Origin: Callorhinchus milii
Taxonomy: Eukaryota
DNA: 64,000 nt
Reading direction: 5' to 3'
Assembly (NCBI RefSeq): GCF_018977255.1
Contig: NW_024704742.1
Coordinates: forward strand, 81,532,001 to 81,596,000
Shown in pieces: positions 9,930 through 63,736 of the stretch. Position numbers and translations under genes: made by a program. Numbering within the stretch: the stretch's first letter is position 1; the number at the start of each line of letters is the position of its first letter. Under the pieces are notes generated by a model. The model did no database searches. It was not told where the DNA came from and was given only the letters and a program-made list of their open reading frames with translations.

Positions 9930-11420
9930 CTCACCTCCTCCACCTACCTGACCTACCCCTAAAACCCTCTGATCCCGTACGCAACCTAGGCATCAGGTTC
10001 GACCCCCAATTATCCTTCCTCCCCCACATCCGGTCCCTCACCAGCACCGCTTTCTTCCACCGCAGACGCGTCGCCCGTCTCCACCAATACCTCTCCCCAA
10101 AAGCCACTAAAACTCTGGTGTTCCTCATATCTATGCCACAACTGGCACTGCCTTCCATCACCTCTGAAATATTGCCAGACTACGGCAATGCCTCACCCCT
10201 CACGCTGTTGAAACTCTGGTCCACGCCTTTATCACCTCAAGGCTGGACTATGGGAACTCTCTCCTCGCCGGCCTTCCCGGCACCTCCCTCCACAAGCTGC
10301 AGGTCATTCAGAACTCTGCAGCTCGTGTACTGTCCCGCACCAGGCTTCGGGACCACATCACTCCCACCCTCGCTCGCCCCACTGGCTCCCCATCCCCCAG
10401 AGGATCGAATTCAAGATCCTCATCCTCACCTACAAGGCCATTCATGGCCTCGCTCCCTCCTACCTCTTCGACCTACTATCTCCCTACCTACCCGCCCGTA
10501 CCCTCCGTTCCTCTGGCTCCGGTCTGCTCCACATCCCCCGCCCCAACCGCCCTACCATCGATGGCCGGGCCTTCAGTCTCTCAGCCCCGAGGCTCTGGAA
10601 CTCTATCCCCCAGTGCCTTCGCCGCCTCCTCCCTTTCCTCCTTCAAGGCTGATCTCAAGACTTTTCTCTTTGACCGTGCCTTCAGCTCCCCTCTCGACTC
10701 TCTAACCCCTCCTCGCTCCCTGCCTTCCCTCCCCTCACCCTGACCATTTCCCCCCTGCTCGGGTCCTGACCCAACTGTCCAGCGCCTTGGGACATCCTCC
10801 CGACGTGAAAGGCACTCTATAAATGAAATCTTGTTGTTGTTTGTCACCTCTCGGCTGGACTATTCAAACGCCTTCCTCGCCGGTCTCTCATCCACTACCA
10901 TCCATAAAATCCAAATCATTCAGAACTCTGCCGCCTCATTCTCACCTGCGCGAAACTCCGCTCCCCGATTACCCCAGTCCTTGCCAGACTGCACTGGCTG
11001 CCTGTCTGAGAGGGTCGATTTCATGATCCTCACCCTCGTATTCAAGTCCCTGCACTCCTCTGCACCCCCCTACCTCTCTGACCTCCTCTCTCCTCAGCAC
11101 AGTACCCGTTGCCTTTGTTCCTCCAGGTCTGGCCTCCTCCTTGTCCCCCGATTCCTCCATTCCATCCTTGGTGGCCGTGCCTTCAGCCACTATGCCCCGA
11201 GGCTCTGGAACTGCCTTGCTCACTCCCTTCATCTCACTCCCTCCCTTCCCATTTTCAGGTCTCTGCTGACGACCTTTCTTTTCGACCGCCCCTTTGGTCA
11301 CCTTCCCACCCCTCCCCCTGGCTCGGTCCCGGGATCCTAAACTGTAAAGCGCTCTGAGATGCCGTCCGGCGTGGAGGGCGCTATATAAATCCAAGCTGTT
11401 GTTGTTGTTGTTGTTGTTAT
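9930..11420 (+). mobile_element. Older L2 (9930-10119 and 10840-11420) with a younger L2 (10120-10839) nested inside
   Basis: The old copy reads VRNLGIRFDPQLSF...KTLV | FVTSRLDYSN across the insert. Both copies end in (TTG)n tails. Confidence 0.88.
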
Positions 11421-24584: not shown

Positions 24585-24777
24585 TGTAAACTGCCGAAGC
24601 TAAAAATGGGAAACCATCAAGATGAAAACGATCGAGTTGAATGACCTCAGGACATGCATAAACCAACTTCCAAGGAAAAGGCAATGTCAAACACCAACTG
24701 GCCATAACAAAAGGCAAGGTGTTAACTGGATCAAACACAATGAACTGACTGAAGCTGGACTCAGGACACTTCGAGTC
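24585..24777 (+). repeat. 5' LTR (U3 part only; remainder and PBS deleted)
   Basis: Aligns by eye to 30025-30215 with about 13 differences in ~180 bp. Similarity stops near 24777 and no PBS is seen. Confidence 0.85.
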
Positions 24778-24877
24778 TGAGAAACGGGGAAAGGATTACT
24801 GGCCCAAGTGGTCTAACGTTGACCGGGTGTCAAGGTAGTCAGGAGTTTGAGTCCTAGGGTGATTAAAGCAGTTAAGA

Positions 24878-27099
24878 ATGGAAGAAAAAATTGGGAAATA
24901 TATAGACGAGGTTGTCTAAAAATGAGGGAGAGTTTGGGGCAGGGCAGATGTGCCCAACACCATTTGCGAAGTGTAGTCGTATTTTTGTGGAATTAAGAGA
25001 AAAGTGGAAAATAAAACAGGGTAATGAGAAGGCAGTATGGTTATTGGCCTCTCAATTTAAAATTGCACAGAGTGTGTTAAGAAAAGGAGAGCTTACCACA
25101 GAAAAAAGTGCTAAATGAGGAAAGGATTAGAGTACTCGAGGAGAAGGAGAAAGCCTTAGAGGGAAAGGCAGGGGAGTTAGAATTTATGTTAAAGAAAGCT
25201 TTAGAGGAGCTGAAAGCATAAAGACAAGGACTGAGAAGTGACGCAGAGCAGTACAGCAAGCAAATACACAGCTTGGAAGGGAACAGTGAATATTATCAGT
25301 CTCAGGTATCTCAGGTATAGGATTAAGGAGGACATTGGAGAATTTACAGGAGGATAATAGACAGGCAGAGCATCGCAATAGGTGGTTGACTCAAGATAAT
25401 GAAGATGTAAAGGCAACTGTTAAGATACAAGCTGCCATGGCTAGAGAATTTAGACAAGGGAATCCTACATCCCACGTACAGTGTGAAAGGAAGATACGAT
25501 AACTGGAAGCCCCGTTGAGGTTTAAGAGAGGGATCAAATGCACATTGAAGGGCATTAATGATGAGAATGATGAGAATATCGACTGGGATGATTTGAACAG
25601 AAAGGTGGCAGAACACCATGACCCTAAGAATGGGGGCTCATTTGAGATGTGTCCCATGGCCTATGTGTTAGTGATGCACCAAAATGTCCAAGGCCCATCC
25701 GTTCCCCCCAGAAGATCGAATTCAAGATCCTCATCCTCACCTACAAGGCCATTCACGGCCTTGCTCCCTCCTACCTCTCCGACCTACTATCCCCCTATCT
25801 ACCCGCCCGTACCCTCCGTTCCTCTGGCTCCGGTCTGCTCCACATCCCCCGCCCTAACCGCCCTACCATCGGTGACCGGGCCTTCAGCCTCTCAGCCCCG
25901 AGGCTCTGGAACTCTATCCCCCAGTGCCTTCGCCTTGCTTCCTCCCTTTCCTCCTTCAAGGCCGGTCTCAAGACCTTTCTCTTTGACCGTGCCTTCAGCT
26001 CCCCTCTCGACTCTCTACACCCTCCTCGCTCCCACCCTTCCCTCCCCTCACCCTGACCATTTCCCCCTGCTAGGGTCCTGACCCAACTATAGAGCGCCTT
26101 GGGACGTCCTCCTGACGTGAAAGGCGCTCTATAAATGGAATCTTGTTGTTGTTGTTGTTCCTCAGCTGCAGTCTCGGTTTATTGTTCCTTATACAGGACA
26201 CAGATTCAAGAGATGGCTGCTAAACTGCCCAAATATGATGGAAAAGGGGATCTTTTCAAACAGCTCTGAAGTAAGTTAGGTAGTCAACTTGAACACTCTC
26301 AGTAACATTGAGCATTTAAAGCTGGCTGGGTACACTTTGGGGCCTCATGTTTATGTGTTTTATTCCCTTATAGAAAGATGGGGACAGGAACGTTGCAGGA
26401 ATTAACAGATGAAGTAATGAGCATTATGGGGTAGGCTAGGGGTGACCCCACAGAAATGATAAGACAATGCAGGCAGGAAGAGGATGAGTCCCCGTGCATT
26501 TGTGGCCACAGTACGACCGACCCGTACAGTTTAAACCAGATTAACATGACCAGAGCAGCAGTAGGACAGAGGTGGTTAAGAACCCTCATCACACATTCAC
26601 TGCCTTTTCTCCAAGCAGCACTTAATGGGTTTGATGAGGAGGATCTGAATCCTACAGAGGCTTGGGTCCTCCGAAAGATGACATTGAAGTGGGAAGCTAG
26701 GAAGCATAATTTGAGAGGAAAGAAGGGCCAGGTATATTTAATGACTCGCCAAAAAAAAACGGCTAGTGTGGAAGAACGAGGGGTCCCGACAGGGGGATCC
26801 CAGGATGGACGGGGAAAAGAAAAGGATGGGAGGAATGGGAAGGATAATGTGATTACTGCAAGAAGCAAGGACACATTGAGAGTTGGTGCGGGCAGAAGAA
26901 TAATGTGGGGACAGGCCATTCAGGAACCCAGGGTGTGGGACAGGCCTGCCATGTGTGTTTAAGTGTGGAGGGCAGGACATTTTGCCAGGGAGTGCCCCCA
27001 ACAGGCTTCTCCCCACCAGTTGGAGCAGATGAAAGTAATTTAGCAATCTGTCCAGCCCTCAGCACCACCTCAGCCTATGGATGTACAGACTGGGTCTGA
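24878..27099 (+). pseudogene. gag: gag remnant: coiled-coil N-terminus, capsid-like region, CCHC zinc knuckle; stops, frameshifts and an L2 insertion
   Basis: ATG at 24878 (MEEKIGKY); coiled-coil EERIRVLEEKEKALEGKAGELEFMLKKALEELKA; QEMAAKLPKYDGKGDLF at ~26207; frameshifted knuckle (C)FKCGGQ(G)HFARECP at ~26952-26997. Confidence 0.8.
25706..26156 (+). mobile_element. Young 5'-truncated L2 LINE inserted in gag
   Basis: [25 protein letters not shown]...[12 protein letters not shown]...LKTFLF, (TTG)n tail, TSD GTTCC at 25701-25705 / 26157-26161. Confidence 0.9.
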
Positions 27100-27187
27100 T
27101 CCAATGCAAGGGCAGGTCCTATCTGAACAATGACAGGGACAAGCCTCAACACAAATGTTGTGCCTGTTCTGGTGCGACAGGTTTGGG

Positions 27188-27450
27188 GGACCATGTGTCC
27201 AGGTTGGTGTAAGAGGCTGCACTAGCGTATTTTTAATAGACACAAGAGCCTCCAGAACTGTAATTACTGAGTGAGAACCTGAAAAATCATCATTTGCTTT
27301 GAACCGAGCGATCATCTCTATCTGGCTTTACTGGAAACTCTCAGGGTGGAATCAATCCCTATTCCCCTTCAGATAATGCCATTGACATGTCATTGAATTT
27401 GTGGGATAGTGAATATGAAACAGAATCGTAGGAGCAGATTTGATGGGAGA
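27188..27450 (+). pseudogene. pro: Retroviral aspartic protease remnant
   Basis: GPCVQVGVRGCTSVFLIDTRASRTVI (DTGA-type active site mutated to DTRA) and downstream RIVGADLM (ILGxD-like motif). Confidence 0.8.
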
Positions 27451-27549
27451 GCAAAGGCGAGTAATAAATCTGGCAAATCTCTTGTTGTGGCAAACAGGAC
27501 CCCAGAGCCAATTTAAGAGAAATCCAATTGTGGTTCCTGATCATGGAGC

Positions 27550-27957
27550 AATGTACACCATTAAAACAATGGAACCGAATGATTTGGATGTACTGTTACA
27601 GGCAGAGGACCTTCAGATCCAAACAGTTATTGTGGACAATTTGGCAGCATTTGCCTTATATAAGCATGACTGTGGGAATTTGAAGGGGCAGGTGGAAATT
27701 GTTGGCCTGGACCAACTGACACCCTAGAGGCAGTACTGCTTTCCTCCAGAAGCCCATGAGCATGTCCAAGCCACCATTGATTCCCTGGTAAAGTAAAGTG
27801 TTCTTCGACCAATTGCCAAATCCTTCAATTCCCACATATGGCCAGTCCGAAAGTGCCTGCCTGTATGGAAGTGGTTGAGAAACCTCAGCAAGCCCTTGCT
27901 ACTGCTCCCACATTGAAAACCCCTGAAAGAGATAAGCCCTTTTACTTGGAGGTAGTG
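27550..27957 (+). pseudogene. pol: pol remnant: RT N-terminus joined to the post-RT region; RT core and integrase deleted
   Basis: AFALYKHDCG...RQYCFPPEAHEHVQATIDSLVK*SVLRPIAKSFNSHIWPVRK (RT start, cf. NSPIWPVRK), then directly QALATAPTLKTPERDKPFYLEV. No YxDD motif between them. Confidence 0.8.
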
Positions 27958-27961
27958 TCAC

Positions 27962-28636
27962 TATGGTCTTCCAGGAATCCCATAATGACATATTTAATTA
28001 AGGACTGAAGAATTTTCCCTACCACTGATGTCAGACCAACTGATCTATAGTTCCCCATCTTTTCACTCCCACCCTTCTTAAATAGTGGTGTCACGTTTGC
28101 AATCTTCCAATCAATGGGAATCGTTCCAGAATCCAGAGAATTTTGGAAGATCAAAGACAAGCCATCCACTATCTCAGTAGCCACCTCTTTTAAAACCCTA
28201 GGATGTAGGCCATTAGGTCCAGGAGATTTATCAGTTTTAAGACCTGATAATTTACCTAAAATAATTTCTTTACTAATATTAATTCCTCCAAGCTGCTCGC
28301 TAACATTTTCTTCTTGGTTCCCCTCTATTCTTGGTAGGTTTTCAGTGTCTTCTAAGGTGAAGACAGTAACAAAGTACTTGTTTAATGACTCTGCCATGTC
28401 TTTGTCCCCTACTATAATTCCCCCGTCTCTGCCTGTAGAGGACCCACATTTACCCTTGACAGCCTCTTCCTCTTTATATATTTATAAAAACTTTTGTAGT
28501 CTGTCTTTATGTTCCTCGTTAGTTTGCTCTCATATTCCATTTTCTCCCTCTTAATCACTTTTTTGGTTCTCCTTTGTTGATCCCTAAACTTCTCCCAATC
28601 CTCGGGTTTACTACTCATCTTAGCTGTTTTATAGGC
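27962..28636 (-). mobile_element. CR1 LINE ORF2 fragment inside the provirus
   Basis: KSPGPNGLHPRVLKE...DWKIANVTPLFKKG...NYR; near-identical to 62098-62773. Confidence 0.92.
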
Positions 28637-29835
28637 TCAAGGGAACTAAGATATGGTACGTGTGTTGGTGTAAGGAGAACAGTTCTCTTACTGAGGAAAA
28701 ACATAGTAGTAATTAAAGAATAGCACATTACTATACACTTGTTTTGTAGATAACAATAGCTTGGAACTAGACACCATTAAACAGTTGACAACAGGCACAT
28801 GGAATGCAGCAAGTGTGAATATGACAGAATCGCAGAATTTAGTGACTCTGGAGTTAATCGGATGTAACTCCACATGGAGCAGACCAAAATAAATATCAGC
28901 AGATGGTCTCGTTTACCCTTTCTCTGCCACAGTTTGATCCTAAAATGATTGATATACACAATTGGTTAAACCCTACTCGATGGGTATGATGGAAAAGGGA
29001 ATTTTAAAAGGAAGAAAAGAGGTCCCGTCTCTCATGGCTAGGAAAAATGAATCTGAATCATTGGAAAAAGTAGACTTGTCCTGTTGTTCAAACAGAGGGT
29101 ATAACTGGATGTGCAGGTGCGATGCCACCCCTGAAAAGACTAATACACCTATTTGTGGGATGAAATCACAAGGCTCAGAGAGAACCTCTGTGCCCAGTTC
29201 AACTCAAGGTAATGAATGGAGAATTCATTAAGAGTGCATATCACGAGCATGGGGAATATTGTATGTTAACTGATCAGAAACATTTTACTTATGGTAATCT
29301 ACAATGTGAATTAAATCAAACCCAGCTTTGTGTGAAGATAAGGAGACACTTTGTTATTGCTAATAATAATAATAATCCTTGCATTTGATATAGCGCTTTT
29401 CACGTCAGGAGGACGTCCCAAAGCACTTCACAGAACACACTGTAAAGTGAATTGACTGAATATTTGTGGGCGAACGCGGCAGCCAATTGCGCACAATCAT
29501 GGTTTGGACCCACTGATGATATATAATGGAACTCATGTAATTAATACTGTTGACCGTGAGAAACCTGATGATTATGTACCCAATTTTGAAATGCACATTG
29601 TACCGCCGACTCTCGAATTAGAGAAGTTGTTGGAGAAAATGGAAAGTCACCTGGTCCAAGTGACCAAAATGAGTAAAGTGCGGCAAGAAATGAGTAATCT
29701 AATATCACATTCTGATTATGAATTAACCATAGAGAACACTTTCGCTAAATGGATGTTTAAGATATTGTAATTGTACTACTGGTATTAGATACTATTCTTA
29801 TGTTTTTGTTTTGTTGTTTGTATAAAATACTTAAG
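28637..29835 (+). pseudogene. env: env remnant (C-terminal part), fusion-glycoprotein-like: Cys-rich domain, heptad region, TM
   Basis: Reconstructed across frameshifts: ...VNMTESQNLVTLELIGCNST...MVSFTLSLPQF...VDLSCCSNRGYNWMCRCDA...ICG...LCPVQL...HGEYCMLTD...LQCELNQTQLCV...[SINE]...LELEKLLEKMESHLVQVTKMSKVRQEMSNLI...KWMFKIL*...ILFLCFCFVVC. Several NxS/T sequons; lies between pol and the 3' LTR. Confidence 0.75.
29362..29495 (-). mobile_element. 5'-truncated SINE inserted in env
   Basis: 3' 135 bp of the young SINE family with (ATT)n tail; the env frame resumes on the other side. Confidence 0.9.
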
Positions 29836-30024
29836 TGATTGAACAAACATATGACATGGGTTGAATTAAAAGGTGAAAGTATTGTTGAGAATTGGAAATT
29901 ATTGAAAATGCAAAAGGTGGTTTAATTTGGGCAATTCGGGGATTAAGACTTGAACCTGAGAGTGAGGATATGACAATTGAATTAGCAGGCAGCTCTTGAT
30001 AACCGCACCTGCTGGAGGATGGAC

Positions 30025-30920
30025 TGTAAGATACCGAAGCTGCAAAATGGGAAACCATCAAGATGAAAACAATTGAGTTGAATGACCTCAGGACATGCAT
30101 GCACCAATTTACAAGGAAAAGGCAATGTCTAACACCAACTGGCCATAACAAAAGACAAGGTGTTAACTGGATCAAACACAATGAACTGACTGAAGCTGGA
30201 CTCAGGAAATGCATCAAACACAAATGAACTGACTGAAACTGGGCTTAGGATACTTTGAATCCATGGCAGAAATAAACAAGTCCTCTATAGTCAATGAAAG
30301 ACACACAAATAATCAGCGTAGGATGGGAAGAAAAAAGGGTTACAAAAGCTTAAGTGAGCAGCGGAAGGAGAGAGATCATGGCTACAGTAGAGGAGCAACA
30401 TCGACGAGTAGTCACTCCAGGTCTCCCAGGGTAAGAAATTTGATTAAACTGAGCCCTGAATCATCTTCCGCAGTTTTATGTGTTAAACGTTTAACTGTTG
30501 TAACCGTTGTTTTGGTTAGCAATGAATAATATCTAGTTTACTGTATTTTGTCTCTGTTCAAATACCTTGTCAAGATAATAATAATAATAATAATAATAAT
30601 CCTTGCATTTGATATAGCGCTTTTCACATCGGGAGGACGTCCCAAAGCGCTTCACAGAACACACCGTAAAGTGAATTGACTGTATATTTTTTGTGGGCGA
30701 ACGCGGCAGCCAATTGAGCACAGCAATGTCCCACACACAGTCGTAGATTGAAAACGACCAATTTATTATTATTTTTTGTTTTGGAGGGATTATTATTAGG
30801 CGTGTGGAGTAAGGAAACTTACCCAAGGTTTCGCCCTGCCTGGAACAATCAGGCAGGGCGAAACAAGATGAACAATCAGAACAGGATGAAGACTAAGCAC
30901 CCTCGCCACAAAACCCTACA
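30025..30920 (+). repeat. 3' LTR, interrupted by a SINE
   Basis: Preceded by purine-rich GGAGGATGGAC (PPT-like). TG...CA ends, internal ~45-bp tandem duplication at 30170-30260, host SINE resumes at 30921. Confidence 0.8.
30577..30863 (-). mobile_element. SINE inserted in the 3' LTR with a rearranged 5' junction
   Basis: Young SINE body with (ATT)n tail, flanked by CAAGAT at 30571-30576 and 30864-30869. Confidence 0.85.
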
Positions 30921-51292: not shown

Positions 51293-51613
51293 AATAATAA
51301 TAATAATAATCCTTGCATTTGATATAGCGCTTTTCACGTCGGGAGAACGTCCCAAAGCGCTTCACAGAACACACTGTAAAGTGAATTGAATGTATATTTG
51401 TGGGCGAACGCGGCAGCCAATTGCGCACAGCAATGTCCCACAAACAGTCGTAGATTGAAAATGACCAATTTATTATTGTTTTTGGTTTTGGAGGGATTAT
51501 TATTAGGTGTGTGGAGTAAGGAAACTTGCCCAAGGTTTCGCCCTCTGCCTGGAATTGAACTCAGGTCTCTCGCTTGCAAAGCGAGTGCTCTAACCACTGA
51601 GCTACAGGACTCC
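51293..51613 (-). mobile_element. Full-length young tRNA-headed SINE, short variant
   Basis: Reverse complement of the 43299-43618 family. Confidence 0.92.
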
Positions 51614-60773: not shown

Positions 60774-62773
60774 CTTAAGAACATAAGAACATAGGAATTA
60801 GGAGCAGGAGTAGGCCATTTGGCCCCTCGAGCCTGCCCCGCCATTTGATAAGATCATGGCTGATCTTCAGACCTAACTCTAATTACCTGTCCTATATCCC
60901 ATATCCCTTAATCCCTCTATTTTTAAAAAAATTATCAGTCTCAGTCTTGAAGATGTTCAAGGACTGAGCATCTACAGCCTTCTGGGGTAGTGAATTCCAT
61001 AAATTCACTACCTTCTGAGTGAAGAAATGTTTCCTCAAGTCTGTTCTAAAAGGCTGACCCTTAATTTTAAGACTGTGACCCCTGGTTATAGATTCTCCTA
61101 CCAGGGGAAACAGACCCTCAGTGTATACTTTATCCAGCCCTTTAAGAATCTTATATGTATCTTATACGATCTCCCCTAATTCTTCTGTACTCTAGAGAAT
61201 ACAACCCTAGTTTATTCAGCCTATCCTCACAGGTCAGTCCCCTCATCCCAGGAACTAACCAAGTGAATCTACGCTGCACCCCCTCTAGGGCAAGTATATC
61301 CTTTTTCAAATAAGGAGACCAAAAGTGCACACAATACTCTAGGTGCGGTCTCACCAAGGCCCTATACAGTTGCAGCAAGACTTCCCTACTCTTGTACTCT
61401 AAACCTTTTGCAATGAATGCTAACATGCCGTTCGTCTTCTTAGTTGCTTGCTGCACCTGCAAACTAACTTTTTGAGACTGGTGTACAAGGACACCCAAAT
61501 CCCTCTGCACACTAACACTATCTAATCTTTCCCCCTCTAGAAAATAATCTGTTTTTCTATTTTTGCTACCTAGGTGAATAACTTCACACTTCCCCACATT
61601 AAATTCCATCTGCCACCTACTCGCCCACTCCCCTAACCTATCTATATCCCGTTGCAATCTTTTTGCATCATCCTCAGAGCTTACTCTCCCACCTAGTTTA
61701 GTGTCATCCGCGAATTTAGATACGTTACATTCAATGTCCTCGTCTAGATCATTGATGTAAATTGTAAATAGCTGAGGCCCAAGCACTGATCCTTGTGGCA
61801 CTCCACTAGTCACATCCTGCCAATTCGAGAATGACCCGTTTATCCCTACTCTCTGTTTTCTACCCGTTAGCCACTCTTCAATCCATGCTAATATGTTCCC
61901 ATTAATCCCGTGGGCCTTAACCTTGTGCAATAGCCTTTTGTGTGGCACTTTGTCAAATGCCTTTTTAAAATCTAAATATACTACATCTACTGGTTCCCCC
62001 CTATCTAACCTGCTAGATACATCTTCAAAAAACTCTAAAAGATTAGTTAAGCATGACTTCCCTTTTGTAAAGCCATGTTGACTCTGCCTAATCTTGTTAT
62101 GGTCTTCCAGGAATCCCATAATGACATCTTTAATTAAGGACTCAAGAATTTTCCCTACCACTGATGTCAGACTAACTGGTCTATAGTTCCCCATCTTTTC
62201 TCTCCCACCCTTCTTAAATAGTGGTGTCACGTTTGCAATCTTCCAATCAATGGGAACCGTTCCAGAATCCAGAGAATTTTGGAAGATCAAAGACAAGCCA
62301 TCCACTATCTCAGTAGCCACCTCTTTTAAAACCCTAGGATGTAGGCCATCAGGTCCAGGAGATTTATCAGTTTTAAGACCTGATAATTTACCTAAAATAA
62401 TTTCTTTACTAATATTAATTCCTCCAAGTTGCTCGCTAACATTTTCTTCTTGGTTCCCCTCTATTCTTGGTAGGTTTTCAGTGTCTTCTAAGGTGAAGAC
62501 AGTAACAAAGTACTTGTTTAATGACTCTGCCATGTCTTTGTCCCCTACTATAATTCCCCCCGTCTCTGCCTGTAGAGGACCCACATTTACCCTTGACAGC
62601 CTCTTCCTCTTTATATATTTATAAAAACCTTTGTAGTCTGTCTTTATGTTCCTCGCTAGTTTGCTCTCATATTCCATTTTCTCCCTCTTAATCACTTTTT
62701 TGGTTCTCCTTTGTTGATCCCTAAACTTCTCCCAATCCTCGGGTTTACTACTCATCTTAGCTGTTTTATAGGC
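60774..62773 (-). mobile_element. Young 5'-truncated CR1 LINE with intact 3' end
   Basis: Complete RT domain, 3' UTR and terminal octamer repeat (ATGTTCTT)2 on the minus strand near 60776-60793. No APE endonuclease domain. Confidence 0.95.
61151..62755 (-). CDS. CR1 ORF2 reverse transcriptase region, 534-aa open frame (5'-truncated, frameshift near C-terminus)
   Basis: NYRPVSLTS, QHGF, YLDFKKAFDKV, GVPQGSVLGP, SKFADDTKL, LVRPHLEYC. The frame shifts at GDRIRYI, where GDLIETYKIL is expected. Confidence 0.85.
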   Translation of the reverse strand: MSSKPEDWEKFRDQQRRTKKVIKREKMEYESKLARNIKTDYKGFYKYIKRKRLSRVNVGPLQAETGGIIVGDKDMAESLNKYFVTVFTLEDTENLPRIEGNQEENVSEQLGGINISKEIILGKLSGLKTDKSPGPDGLHPRVLKEVATEIVDGLSLIFQNSLDSGTVPIDWKIANVTPLFKKGGREKMGNYRPVSLTSVVGKILESLIKDVIMGFLEDHNKIRQSQHGFTKGKSCLTNLLEFFEDVSSRLDRGEPVDVVYLDFKKAFDKVPHKRLLHKVKAHGINGNILAWIEEWLTGRKQRVGINGSFSNWQDVTSGVPQGSVLGPQLFTIYINDLDEDIECNVSKFADDTKLGGRVSSEDDAKRLQRDIDRLGEWASRWQMEFNVGKCEVIHLGSKNRKTDYFLEGERLDSVSVQRDLGVLVHQSQKVSLQVQQATKKTNGMLAFIAKGLEYKSREVLLQLYRALVRPHLEYCVHFWSPYLKKDILALEGVQRRFTWLVPGMRGLTCEDRLNKLGLYSLEYRRIRGDRIRYI

Positions 62774-63736
62774 TCAAGGGAACTAAGATATGTTACGTGT
62801 GTTGGTGTAAGGAGAACAGTTCTCTTACTGAGGAAAAACATAGTAGTAATTATAGTATAGCACATTACTATACACTTGTTTTGTAGATAACAATAGCTTG
62901 GAACTAGACACCATTAAACAGTTGACAACAGGCACATGGAATGCAGCAAGTGTGAATATGACAGAATCACAGAATTTAGTGACTCTGGAGTTAATCGGAT
63001 GTAACTCCACATGGAGCAGACCAAAATAAATATCAGCAGATGGTCTCGTTTACCCTTTCTCTGCCACAGTTTGATCCTAAAATGATTGATATACACAATT
63101 GGTTAAACCCTATTCGATGGGTATGATGGAAAAGGGAATTTTAAAAGGAAGAAAAGAGGTCCCGTCTCTCATGGCTAGGAAAAATGAATCTGAATCATTG
63201 GAAAAAGTAGACTTGTCCTGTTGTTCAAACAGAGGGTATAACTGGATGTGCAGGTGCGATGCCACCCCTGAAAAGACTAATACACCTATTTGTGGGATGA
63301 AATCACAAGGCTCAGAGAGAACCTCTGTGCCCAGTTCAACTCAAGGTAATGAATGGAGAATTCATTAAGACTGCATATCACGAGCATGGGGAATATTGTA
63401 TGTTAACTGATCAGAAACATTTTACTTATGGTAATCTACAATGTGAATTAAATCAAACCCAGCTTTGTGCGAAGATAAGGAGACACTTTGTTATTGCTAA
63501 TAATAATAATAATCCTTGCATTTGATATAGCGCTTTTCACGTTGGGAGAACGTCCCAAAGCACTTCACAGAACACACTGTAAAGTGAATTGACTGAATAT
63601 TTGTGGGCGAACGCGGCAGCCAATTGCGCACAATCATGGTTTGGACCCACTAATGATATATAATGGAACTCATGTAATTAATACTGTTGACCGTGAGAAA
63701 CCTGATGATTATGTACCCAATTTTGAAATGCACATT
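62774..63736 (+). pseudogene. env: Second copy of the proviral env fragment, including the same SINE insertion (63499-63632)
   Basis: Near-identical to 28637-29599 at a constant offset of 34137 bp; the ORF track shows the same 89-aa peptide at 28962 and 63099. Confidence 0.93.

Follow-up and report, generated by a model that had tools for sequence, protein, structure and literature searches.

The window, that is, the whole stretch of 64,000 nucleotides analyzed here (Callorhinchus milii RefSeq assembly GCF_018977255.1, contig NW_024704742.1, positions 81,532,001 to 81,596,000), carries a decayed LTR element at 24585-30576, in which gag, protease, the start of the reverse transcriptase (RT), an inserted piece of a non-LTR retroelement that we take to be CR1, and env follow one another in that order. 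The features of this element, and of a partial second copy of it, are as follows.

24585..24778, + strand: remnant of the 5' LTR, starting with TG, the remainder apparently lost; the end at ~24778 was set by eye
24900..27060, + strand: broken gag-like gene with a coiled-coil-like N-terminus and two CCHC-type zinc knuckles
25705..26159, + strand: 3' piece of a multi-copy LINE lying inside gag, 93-94% identical to copies at 10394 and 33137
27170..27961, + strand: broken protease, the ~40 first RT residues and a tether-like scrap (from PDB, Pfam and by-eye alignment)
27962..28636, - strand: piece of a non-LTR retroelement ORF2, 98% identical to 62098-62773
28637..29835, + strand: 3' half of a probable F-type env, in pieces in three frames, with a transmembrane (TM)-like stretch at ~29760-29830
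29361..29495, - strand: tRNA-derived SINE of 135 nt, 5'-truncated, inside env, 94-97% identical to several copies in the window
30014..30024, + strand: purine-rich tract just 5' of the 3' LTR, a weak polypurine tract candidate from its sequence
30025..30576, + strand: 3' LTR (TG...CA), its start given by the LTR pair and its end inferred from the TGTCA ahead of the SINE tail
61151-62773, - strand: open non-LTR ORF2 frame of 540 codons (539 aa; Pfam RVT_1, E 9e-35)
62098..63736, + strand: second copy of 27962-29599 (CR1-type piece, env and SINE), 98.7% identical

The arrangement of paired LTRs around gag, pol and env remnants is that of an LTR retroelement or provirus. Over their comparable portions (24585-24766 versus 30025-30207), the two LTRs differ at 12 of 182 nt (K2P 0.069), a divergence that corresponds to ~16 My at a mammalian rate or, if the shark rate assumed in PMC4422223 is applied, to ~158 My; the errors on both figures are wide (7-24 My and 68-243 My, respectively). 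The 3' LTR contains a 43-nt internal duplication and is directly followed by another SINE; with a SINE at the 3' end and a truncated LTR at the 5' end, neither a target-site duplication nor a primer-binding site could be fixed for the element. Just past the 5' LTR remnant, positions 24800-24818 resemble what we take to be the 5' part (D-arm) of a tRNA in the sense orientation, not a normal primer-binding site, and this likeness, seen by eye, may be due to chance. The LINE piece inside gag presumably belongs to L2. The CR1-type insertion takes up the space expected for RNase H, integrase and the 5' half of env, and the RT core, RNase H, integrase and 5' env half are all gone from the element. 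A longer copy of the SINE, at 51293-51554, has a tRNA-like head at its end; five tRNA-like matches were found in the window (14174, 14522, 43301, 50880 and 51540), and the match at 51540, at a minimum, represents the head of this abundant SINE and no tRNA gene. The repeats of the window resemble those of sharks and chimaeras. No host genes were found among the 18 ORFs scanned in the window.

The locus is also represented in contigs from sequencing runs. Contigs from two sequencing runs of a single study contain the env pieces with 0-3 letter differences, and one of these contigs extends from env 38 nt into the 3' LTR, which speaks modestly against an assembly artefact, one of the runs possibly being the window's own source. 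By contig depth, which is not equivalent to copy number, the env bins lie far below the LINE and SINE bins. No RNA sequencing runs were listed as containing this sequence.

The second copy at 62098-63736 differs from the original at 21 of 1638 nt, with one gap, and sits within another CR1-type element, with CR1-type sequence at both of its junctions. The open ORF2 frame at 61151-62773 crosses the left junction of the duplicate without a stop. The duplicate looks like the product of ectopic recombination or conversion between LINE copies, by which a proviral fragment was shifted 34 kb.

A preliminary description of the env stretch had listed a set of features in a repaired reading frame, and all of these were located, though across three frames and split by the SINE. 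FTLSLP lies at 28912 and is followed by a CC-x8-CxC block (DLSCC...CRC) within 29073-29120, with the CC at 29082, and then by ICG, CPV (29191), GEYC, QC and LC. The presumed coding pieces contain seven N-glycosylation sequons (28719, 28752, 28818, 28866, 29046, 29314 and 29525). A pre-TM helix (LELEK...MSNL) at ~29612-29701 has, in its best heptad register, hydrophobic residues at 7 of 10 a/d positions, and a hydrophobic stretch begins at 29764 (KD19 3.0). Changes of frame occur near 28890, 28950, 29170 and 29760; the pieces were tested one by one, so that no result reported here rests on a rebuilt peptide. The CX6CC motif and the immunosuppressive motif (LQNRxxLD), said in the same description to be missing ahead of the TM, were indeed absent from all six of the frame stretches scanned. 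An RKKR at 29009 was considered as a furin site and rejected, as the relatives described below do not match this frame there and the motif lies downstream of the expected position of the cleavage site. The signal peptide, cleavage site, fusion peptide and first heptad of this copy were lost at the CR1-type insertion. With these N-terminal parts lost and the remainder frameshifted and split by the SINE, this env copy is dead and cannot encode a functional protein; there is no sign of co-option.

The relationship of the env remnant to intact proteins can be established statistically. A phmmer search of 1.84 billion proteins with one env frame (stops as X) gave four matches, two of which are real (P0003, E 6e-5; P0004, E 1.6e-4). 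The other two (P0001 and P0002) are tandem-repeat artefacts, whose tblastn matches to the window reach E >= 0.48. P0004, an intact protein of 584 aa, also matches, in order, two more pieces of the window that were absent from the query (E 2e-6 each). It is 38% identical to P0005 (Lithobates pipiens LOC143963402, XP_077329155.1), of which named copies occur on several chromosomes, and likewise 38% identical to P0006; P0004 and P0006 derive from Logan contigs. An HMM built from four natural relatives matched the window nowhere but in the env stretch and its duplicate (iE 1e-14 to 3e-9), the next-best value being 0.45; none of 30 shuffled queries scored above 34.7 bits, compared with 39-54 bits for the real ones. 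In a per-piece shuffle test, no shuffle out of 300 attained the real score for four of the six env pieces, whether P0004 or P0005 was the target, and the Cys-rich pieces align all of their cysteines (5/5 and 4/4, or 9/9 in the core) with those of both proteins. By itself, neither the first piece (28713-28889) nor the TM piece reaches significance: 45 and 36 of 300 shuffles, respectively, reach their scores against P0004, and hhalign gives the first piece an E of 0.61. Thus, of the env reading of ~350 residues originally proposed, homology is secure for ~28900-29770, but the rest, including the first piece and the TM piece, is unsupported when taken alone. A word-index protein search with the pre-TM piece found no relative, and profile A1 found no related locus in viral contigs or metagenome contigs.

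Unlike the broken copy in the window, P0004-P0006 are intact type I membrane proteins with a signal peptide and a single TM. Their identity to the window is 24-37% across the Cys-rich and pre-TM pieces, FT[LM]SLP and CC-x8-CxC are held in common, and like the window they contain neither CX6CC nor the immunosuppressive domain. In P0005 and P0006, a basic site (not clearly seen in P0004) is followed by a Gly-rich hydrophobic stretch, long helices, ~250 Cys-rich residues, a helix and the TM; the Cys-rich residues of the relatives are also beta-rich, with the N-terminal helices before them and the pre-TM helix after them. P0005 and P0006 extend ~160 residues further at the N-terminus and match V-set weakly there (E 0.045); P0004 does not have this arm, and it falls in the region lost from the window. 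Its presence in these proteins suggests that a V-set-like N-terminal arm occurs in amphibian elements. A further frog gene model (P0008, XP_077349957.1), which joins a relative of env to an unrelated retroelement-like protein (HeH/LEM, E 0.005), is probably an annotation chimera.

Judged from sequence comparison, the env remnant would be a fusogen of the paramyxovirus/pneumovirus F kind (class Ib), homologous to the Env of lokiretroviruses, a reading to which we assign a probability of about 0.8. The proposal that env is F-type and not gamma-type is the best reading, but its support is indirect and runs through a chain of intermediates: from the window pieces to P0004, P0005 and P0006 (statistical), from these to lokiretrovirus Env (by eye), and from lokiretrovirus Env to PF00523 (published). 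For the last link, PMC7947760 gives lokiretrovirus Env as a homologue of PF00523 with an E of 2.2e-7. For the second, the relatives show the same motif order as the Env proteins of Loki-Bsp and Loki-Rca in an unscored alignment by eye: GP-x-GI...PG near the N-terminus, a basic site and fusion peptide, F-x-L-x-[LI]P, VG, C, C, CG and C. The pre-TM L-K-x-LL-E-x-K-x-x-H-x-x-Q of Loki-Rca Env is likewise, by eye, the counterpart of the heptad-like helix in the window. The layout is that of F proteins in that a long Cys-rich segment (nine aligned cysteines) lies between heptads A and B and is followed by the TM. Gamma-type retroviral Env, by contrast, has CX6CC and an immunosuppressive domain in its TM subunit.

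Direct comparisons gave no statistically supported match to F proteins. Pfam searches with the six env frames and with P0003-P0006 returned no match to Fusion_gly, nor to TLV_coat, gp41 or foamy Env; only P0006 gave sub-threshold matches (V-set and CcmD_alt), and the six env frames and P0003-P0005 gave nothing. PDB sequence searches with env, P0004 and profile A1 found nothing relevant. AlphaFold models of the relatives, built from 4- and 5-row alignments, reached pLDDT values of only 34 and 32, and none of three Foldseek searches with these low-confidence models gave a match at E <= 0.001; F0 proteins came 3rd, 10th and 12th in the 50 entries obtained with the first model and 22nd with the second, placings that are not counted as support. 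VIA-align on a low-confidence model matched the C-terminal helix alone (best Z 5.6). In the ESM Atlas, P0004 lies next to a Fusion_gly F0 cluster (0.92; 188/256 features) and a Baculo_F cluster (0.94), with values ranging from 0.91 to 0.95, and all ten of the best family-bearing matches fall in one family or clan, with gypsy-Env clusters also adjoining; these scores are weak, as the recognition value for P0004 (1611) is under the mark of 2300. The 73-aa window piece gave no usable match in the Atlas. Paramyxovirus and pneumovirus F0 (PF00523) and the F-type Env of baculoviruses and errantiviruses (Baculo_F, PF12259) have the same order of elements as the env family, but their relationship to the window env is remote, passes through intermediates and yields no HMM match. 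The resemblance to the C-terminal half of such F proteins noted in the preliminary description holds for the order of elements and the weak Atlas matches, but finds no Pfam, PDB or fold match.

That lack of any Pfam, PDB or fold match to F is what would be expected if env were instead a very divergent class Ia (gamma- or epsilon-type) Env or a captured host glycoprotein, its likeness to F being the generic layout of class I proteins. We consider this improbable, given that neither the window nor P0004-P0006 contain CX6CC or the immunosuppressive domain, that in the relatives ~250 beta-rich, Cys-rich residues separate the pre-TM helix from the N-terminal helices, that the motif order is common to lokiretrovirus Env, and that the family matches in the Atlas all fall in one F-related clan. 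Less probable still is a chance insertion into the element of an RNA virus's F gene, as a non-retroviral endogenous viral element; paramyxovirus-like insertions of this sort have been reported in sharks (PMC11089739), but the env remnant has the position and orientation of a proviral env, ~190 nt ahead of the 3' LTR, and its closest relatives are multi-locus frog genes and not viral F proteins.

If env is indeed an F-type fusogen of the retroelement itself, then the ancestral protein, by analogy with F biology, would have been a type I membrane fusogen made as a trimeric precursor and cleaved to free its fusion peptide. The N-terminal heptad A would extend into a trimeric coiled coil and throw the fusion peptide to the target membrane; the disulfide-bonded block preserved in the window, the putative equivalent of F domains I/II, would move as a rigid body; and the pre-TM helix (heptad B) would pack back, merging the membranes. 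The proposed sequence of events follows the class Ib model as set out in Fernandez et al. 2024 (PMC11468914). Of this machinery, the window retains the coding remains of the disulfide-bonded domains, heptad B and the TM.

With the RT core deleted, the lineage of retrovirus that carried this env has to be judged from the rest of the element, which offers some indications. We infer that the gene at 24900..27060 is gag from its position and motifs; the zinc knuckle patterns lie at 26848 and 26954 (Pfam zf-CCHC, E 0.072, below the cut-off), and a PDB sequence search with gag gave no relevant match. In the pol remnant, a QY...WPV block aligns by eye with RT starts in Dataset S2 of PMC7947760, a tether-like scrap of ~35 residues is all that is left of the region where lokiretroviruses carry a dual RNase H (tether plus RH) and a CGIN1-like integrase, and Pfam gives RT_RNaseH_2 at an E of 0.098. 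In the RT start (41 residues), 16-17 positions are identical by eye whether SnRV, Loki-Pma or foamy RT is compared, SnRV being as close as any other. No relatives of the pol remnant were found in a word-index protein search, and no related locus was found when the pol piece was compared with viral contigs. On the whole, a basal canonical retrovirus (SnRV-like, clade III) is somewhat favored as the carrier over a lokiretrovirus, with what is left going to a foamy-like or other origin. Two zinc knuckles in gag point toward a canonical basal retrovirus. SnRV-like ERVs are known in a chimaera, the RTs of cartilaginous-fish ERVs mostly belong to clade III, and the SnRV clade with CmiERV lineage I (Han 2015, PMC4422223) probably has its host group in common with the element. 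Six short motifs from the window were all absent (0/6) from the supplements of Han 2015 (PMC4422223), which is a weak test.

The element could also be a true lokiretrovirus (lokiortervirus) of a divergent branch so far overlooked in cartilaginous fish, a reading in which the F-like Env is a family hallmark and which differs from the favored one in the carrier only. Such an origin is doubtful but not far-fetched, since the Env motif order follows that of lokiretrovirus Env by eye, the coiled-coil-like N-terminus of gag recalls Loki smc-gag and BHIKHARI Gag, and the pol scraps contain Loki-like motifs (HDCG and FYLE, both common to Loki Pol, GADL...N..LW, and motifs at the protease end). In the published descriptions (Wang & Han 2021, PMC7947760, and 2022, PMC9040795), lokiretroviruses are LTR elements with gag, pol and an F-like Env, and by eye the C-terminal motif order of this Env is like that in the window, but the window element differs from them in several respects. 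It has two zinc knuckles, whereas none are visible in the one Loki Gag examined, and nine core cysteines in Env, compared with ~4-5 in the same region of two Loki Envs. Here ~140 codons separate the protease active site from the start of RT, versus ~500 in the three Loki Pols examined out of 24, although the short distance could reflect another deletion in this decayed copy. The Loki-type RT start QY[KR][IL]PL is absent from the RT remnant of the window; this motif and the long spacer are our own observations on published Loki sequences and not a definition given by their authors. Moreover, the frog protein P0005 is plainly distinct from the Env of the frog lokiretrovirus Loki-Rca, and lokiretroviruses have been recorded in none of six chondrichthyan genomes (0/6).

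Another reading that concerns the carrier only, and an improbable one, assigns the element to the group of shark and frog foamy-like ERVs (CmiFLERV/XtrFLERV), whose env would never have been recognized. In the PDB, the pol remnant matches foamy virus PR-RT best (7ksf/7kse, E 0.038), but the match is not significant and few basal retroviral RTs are present in the PDB. The sole named relative of the Env is from a frog. To our knowledge, foamy Gag has no Cys-His boxes, in contrast to the gag-like gene here; there was no Pfam match to foamy Env, and P0004-P0006 have a signal peptide and one TM, as opposed to the two-TM layout of foamy viruses. Shark and frog foamy-like ERVs do cluster together, with env detected in neither (PMC5512871), and foamy virus Env has an F-like class Ib core (PMC11468914). 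However, foamy Env has a second TM in its leader peptide as well as an inserted receptor-binding domain, and no sequence similarity between foamy Env and the window env was detected.

An F-like Env on a vertebrate retroelement is already known, and the window copy is a dead copy of a known kind: F-like Env proteins have been described in lokiretroviruses (PMC7947760, PMC9040795), foamy viruses (PMC11468914) and errantiviruses (10.1101/2023.10.26.564294). Full-text literature searches, which covered few subscription papers, found no F-like Env on an SnRV-like or chondrichthyan retrovirus. The locus is a pointer to a clade of Env proteins (the window, P0004 and the frog proteins P0005 and P0006) that Pfam misses and that is related to published lokiretrovirus Env yet distinct from it, and this clade may ride on a non-Loki gag-pol. 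A broader proposal, which we put forward tentatively and at somewhat less than even odds, is that canonical, non-Loki retroviruses of cartilaginous fish and frogs carry an F-type Env that is related to that of lokiretroviruses but richer in cysteines, and that class Ib is ancestral for retroviruses. If this were true, the F-type Env, together with foamy and lokiretrovirus Env, would be the ancestral form, and SU/TM Env would have replaced it in the orthoretroviral crown, in opposition to the scenario of independent acquisition favored in PMC9040795. Confirmation by an intact member would bear on the origin of retroviral envelopes, for which four scenarios are set out in PMC7947760. The window copy itself is a dead fossil of little importance and a poor locus for testing the ancestry of F-type Env. 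Elsewhere in the same element, the gag stretch at 24873-25198 has matches of ~89% in contigs of sequencing runs X1 and X3, which points to a second, diverged member of the family elsewhere in the genome.
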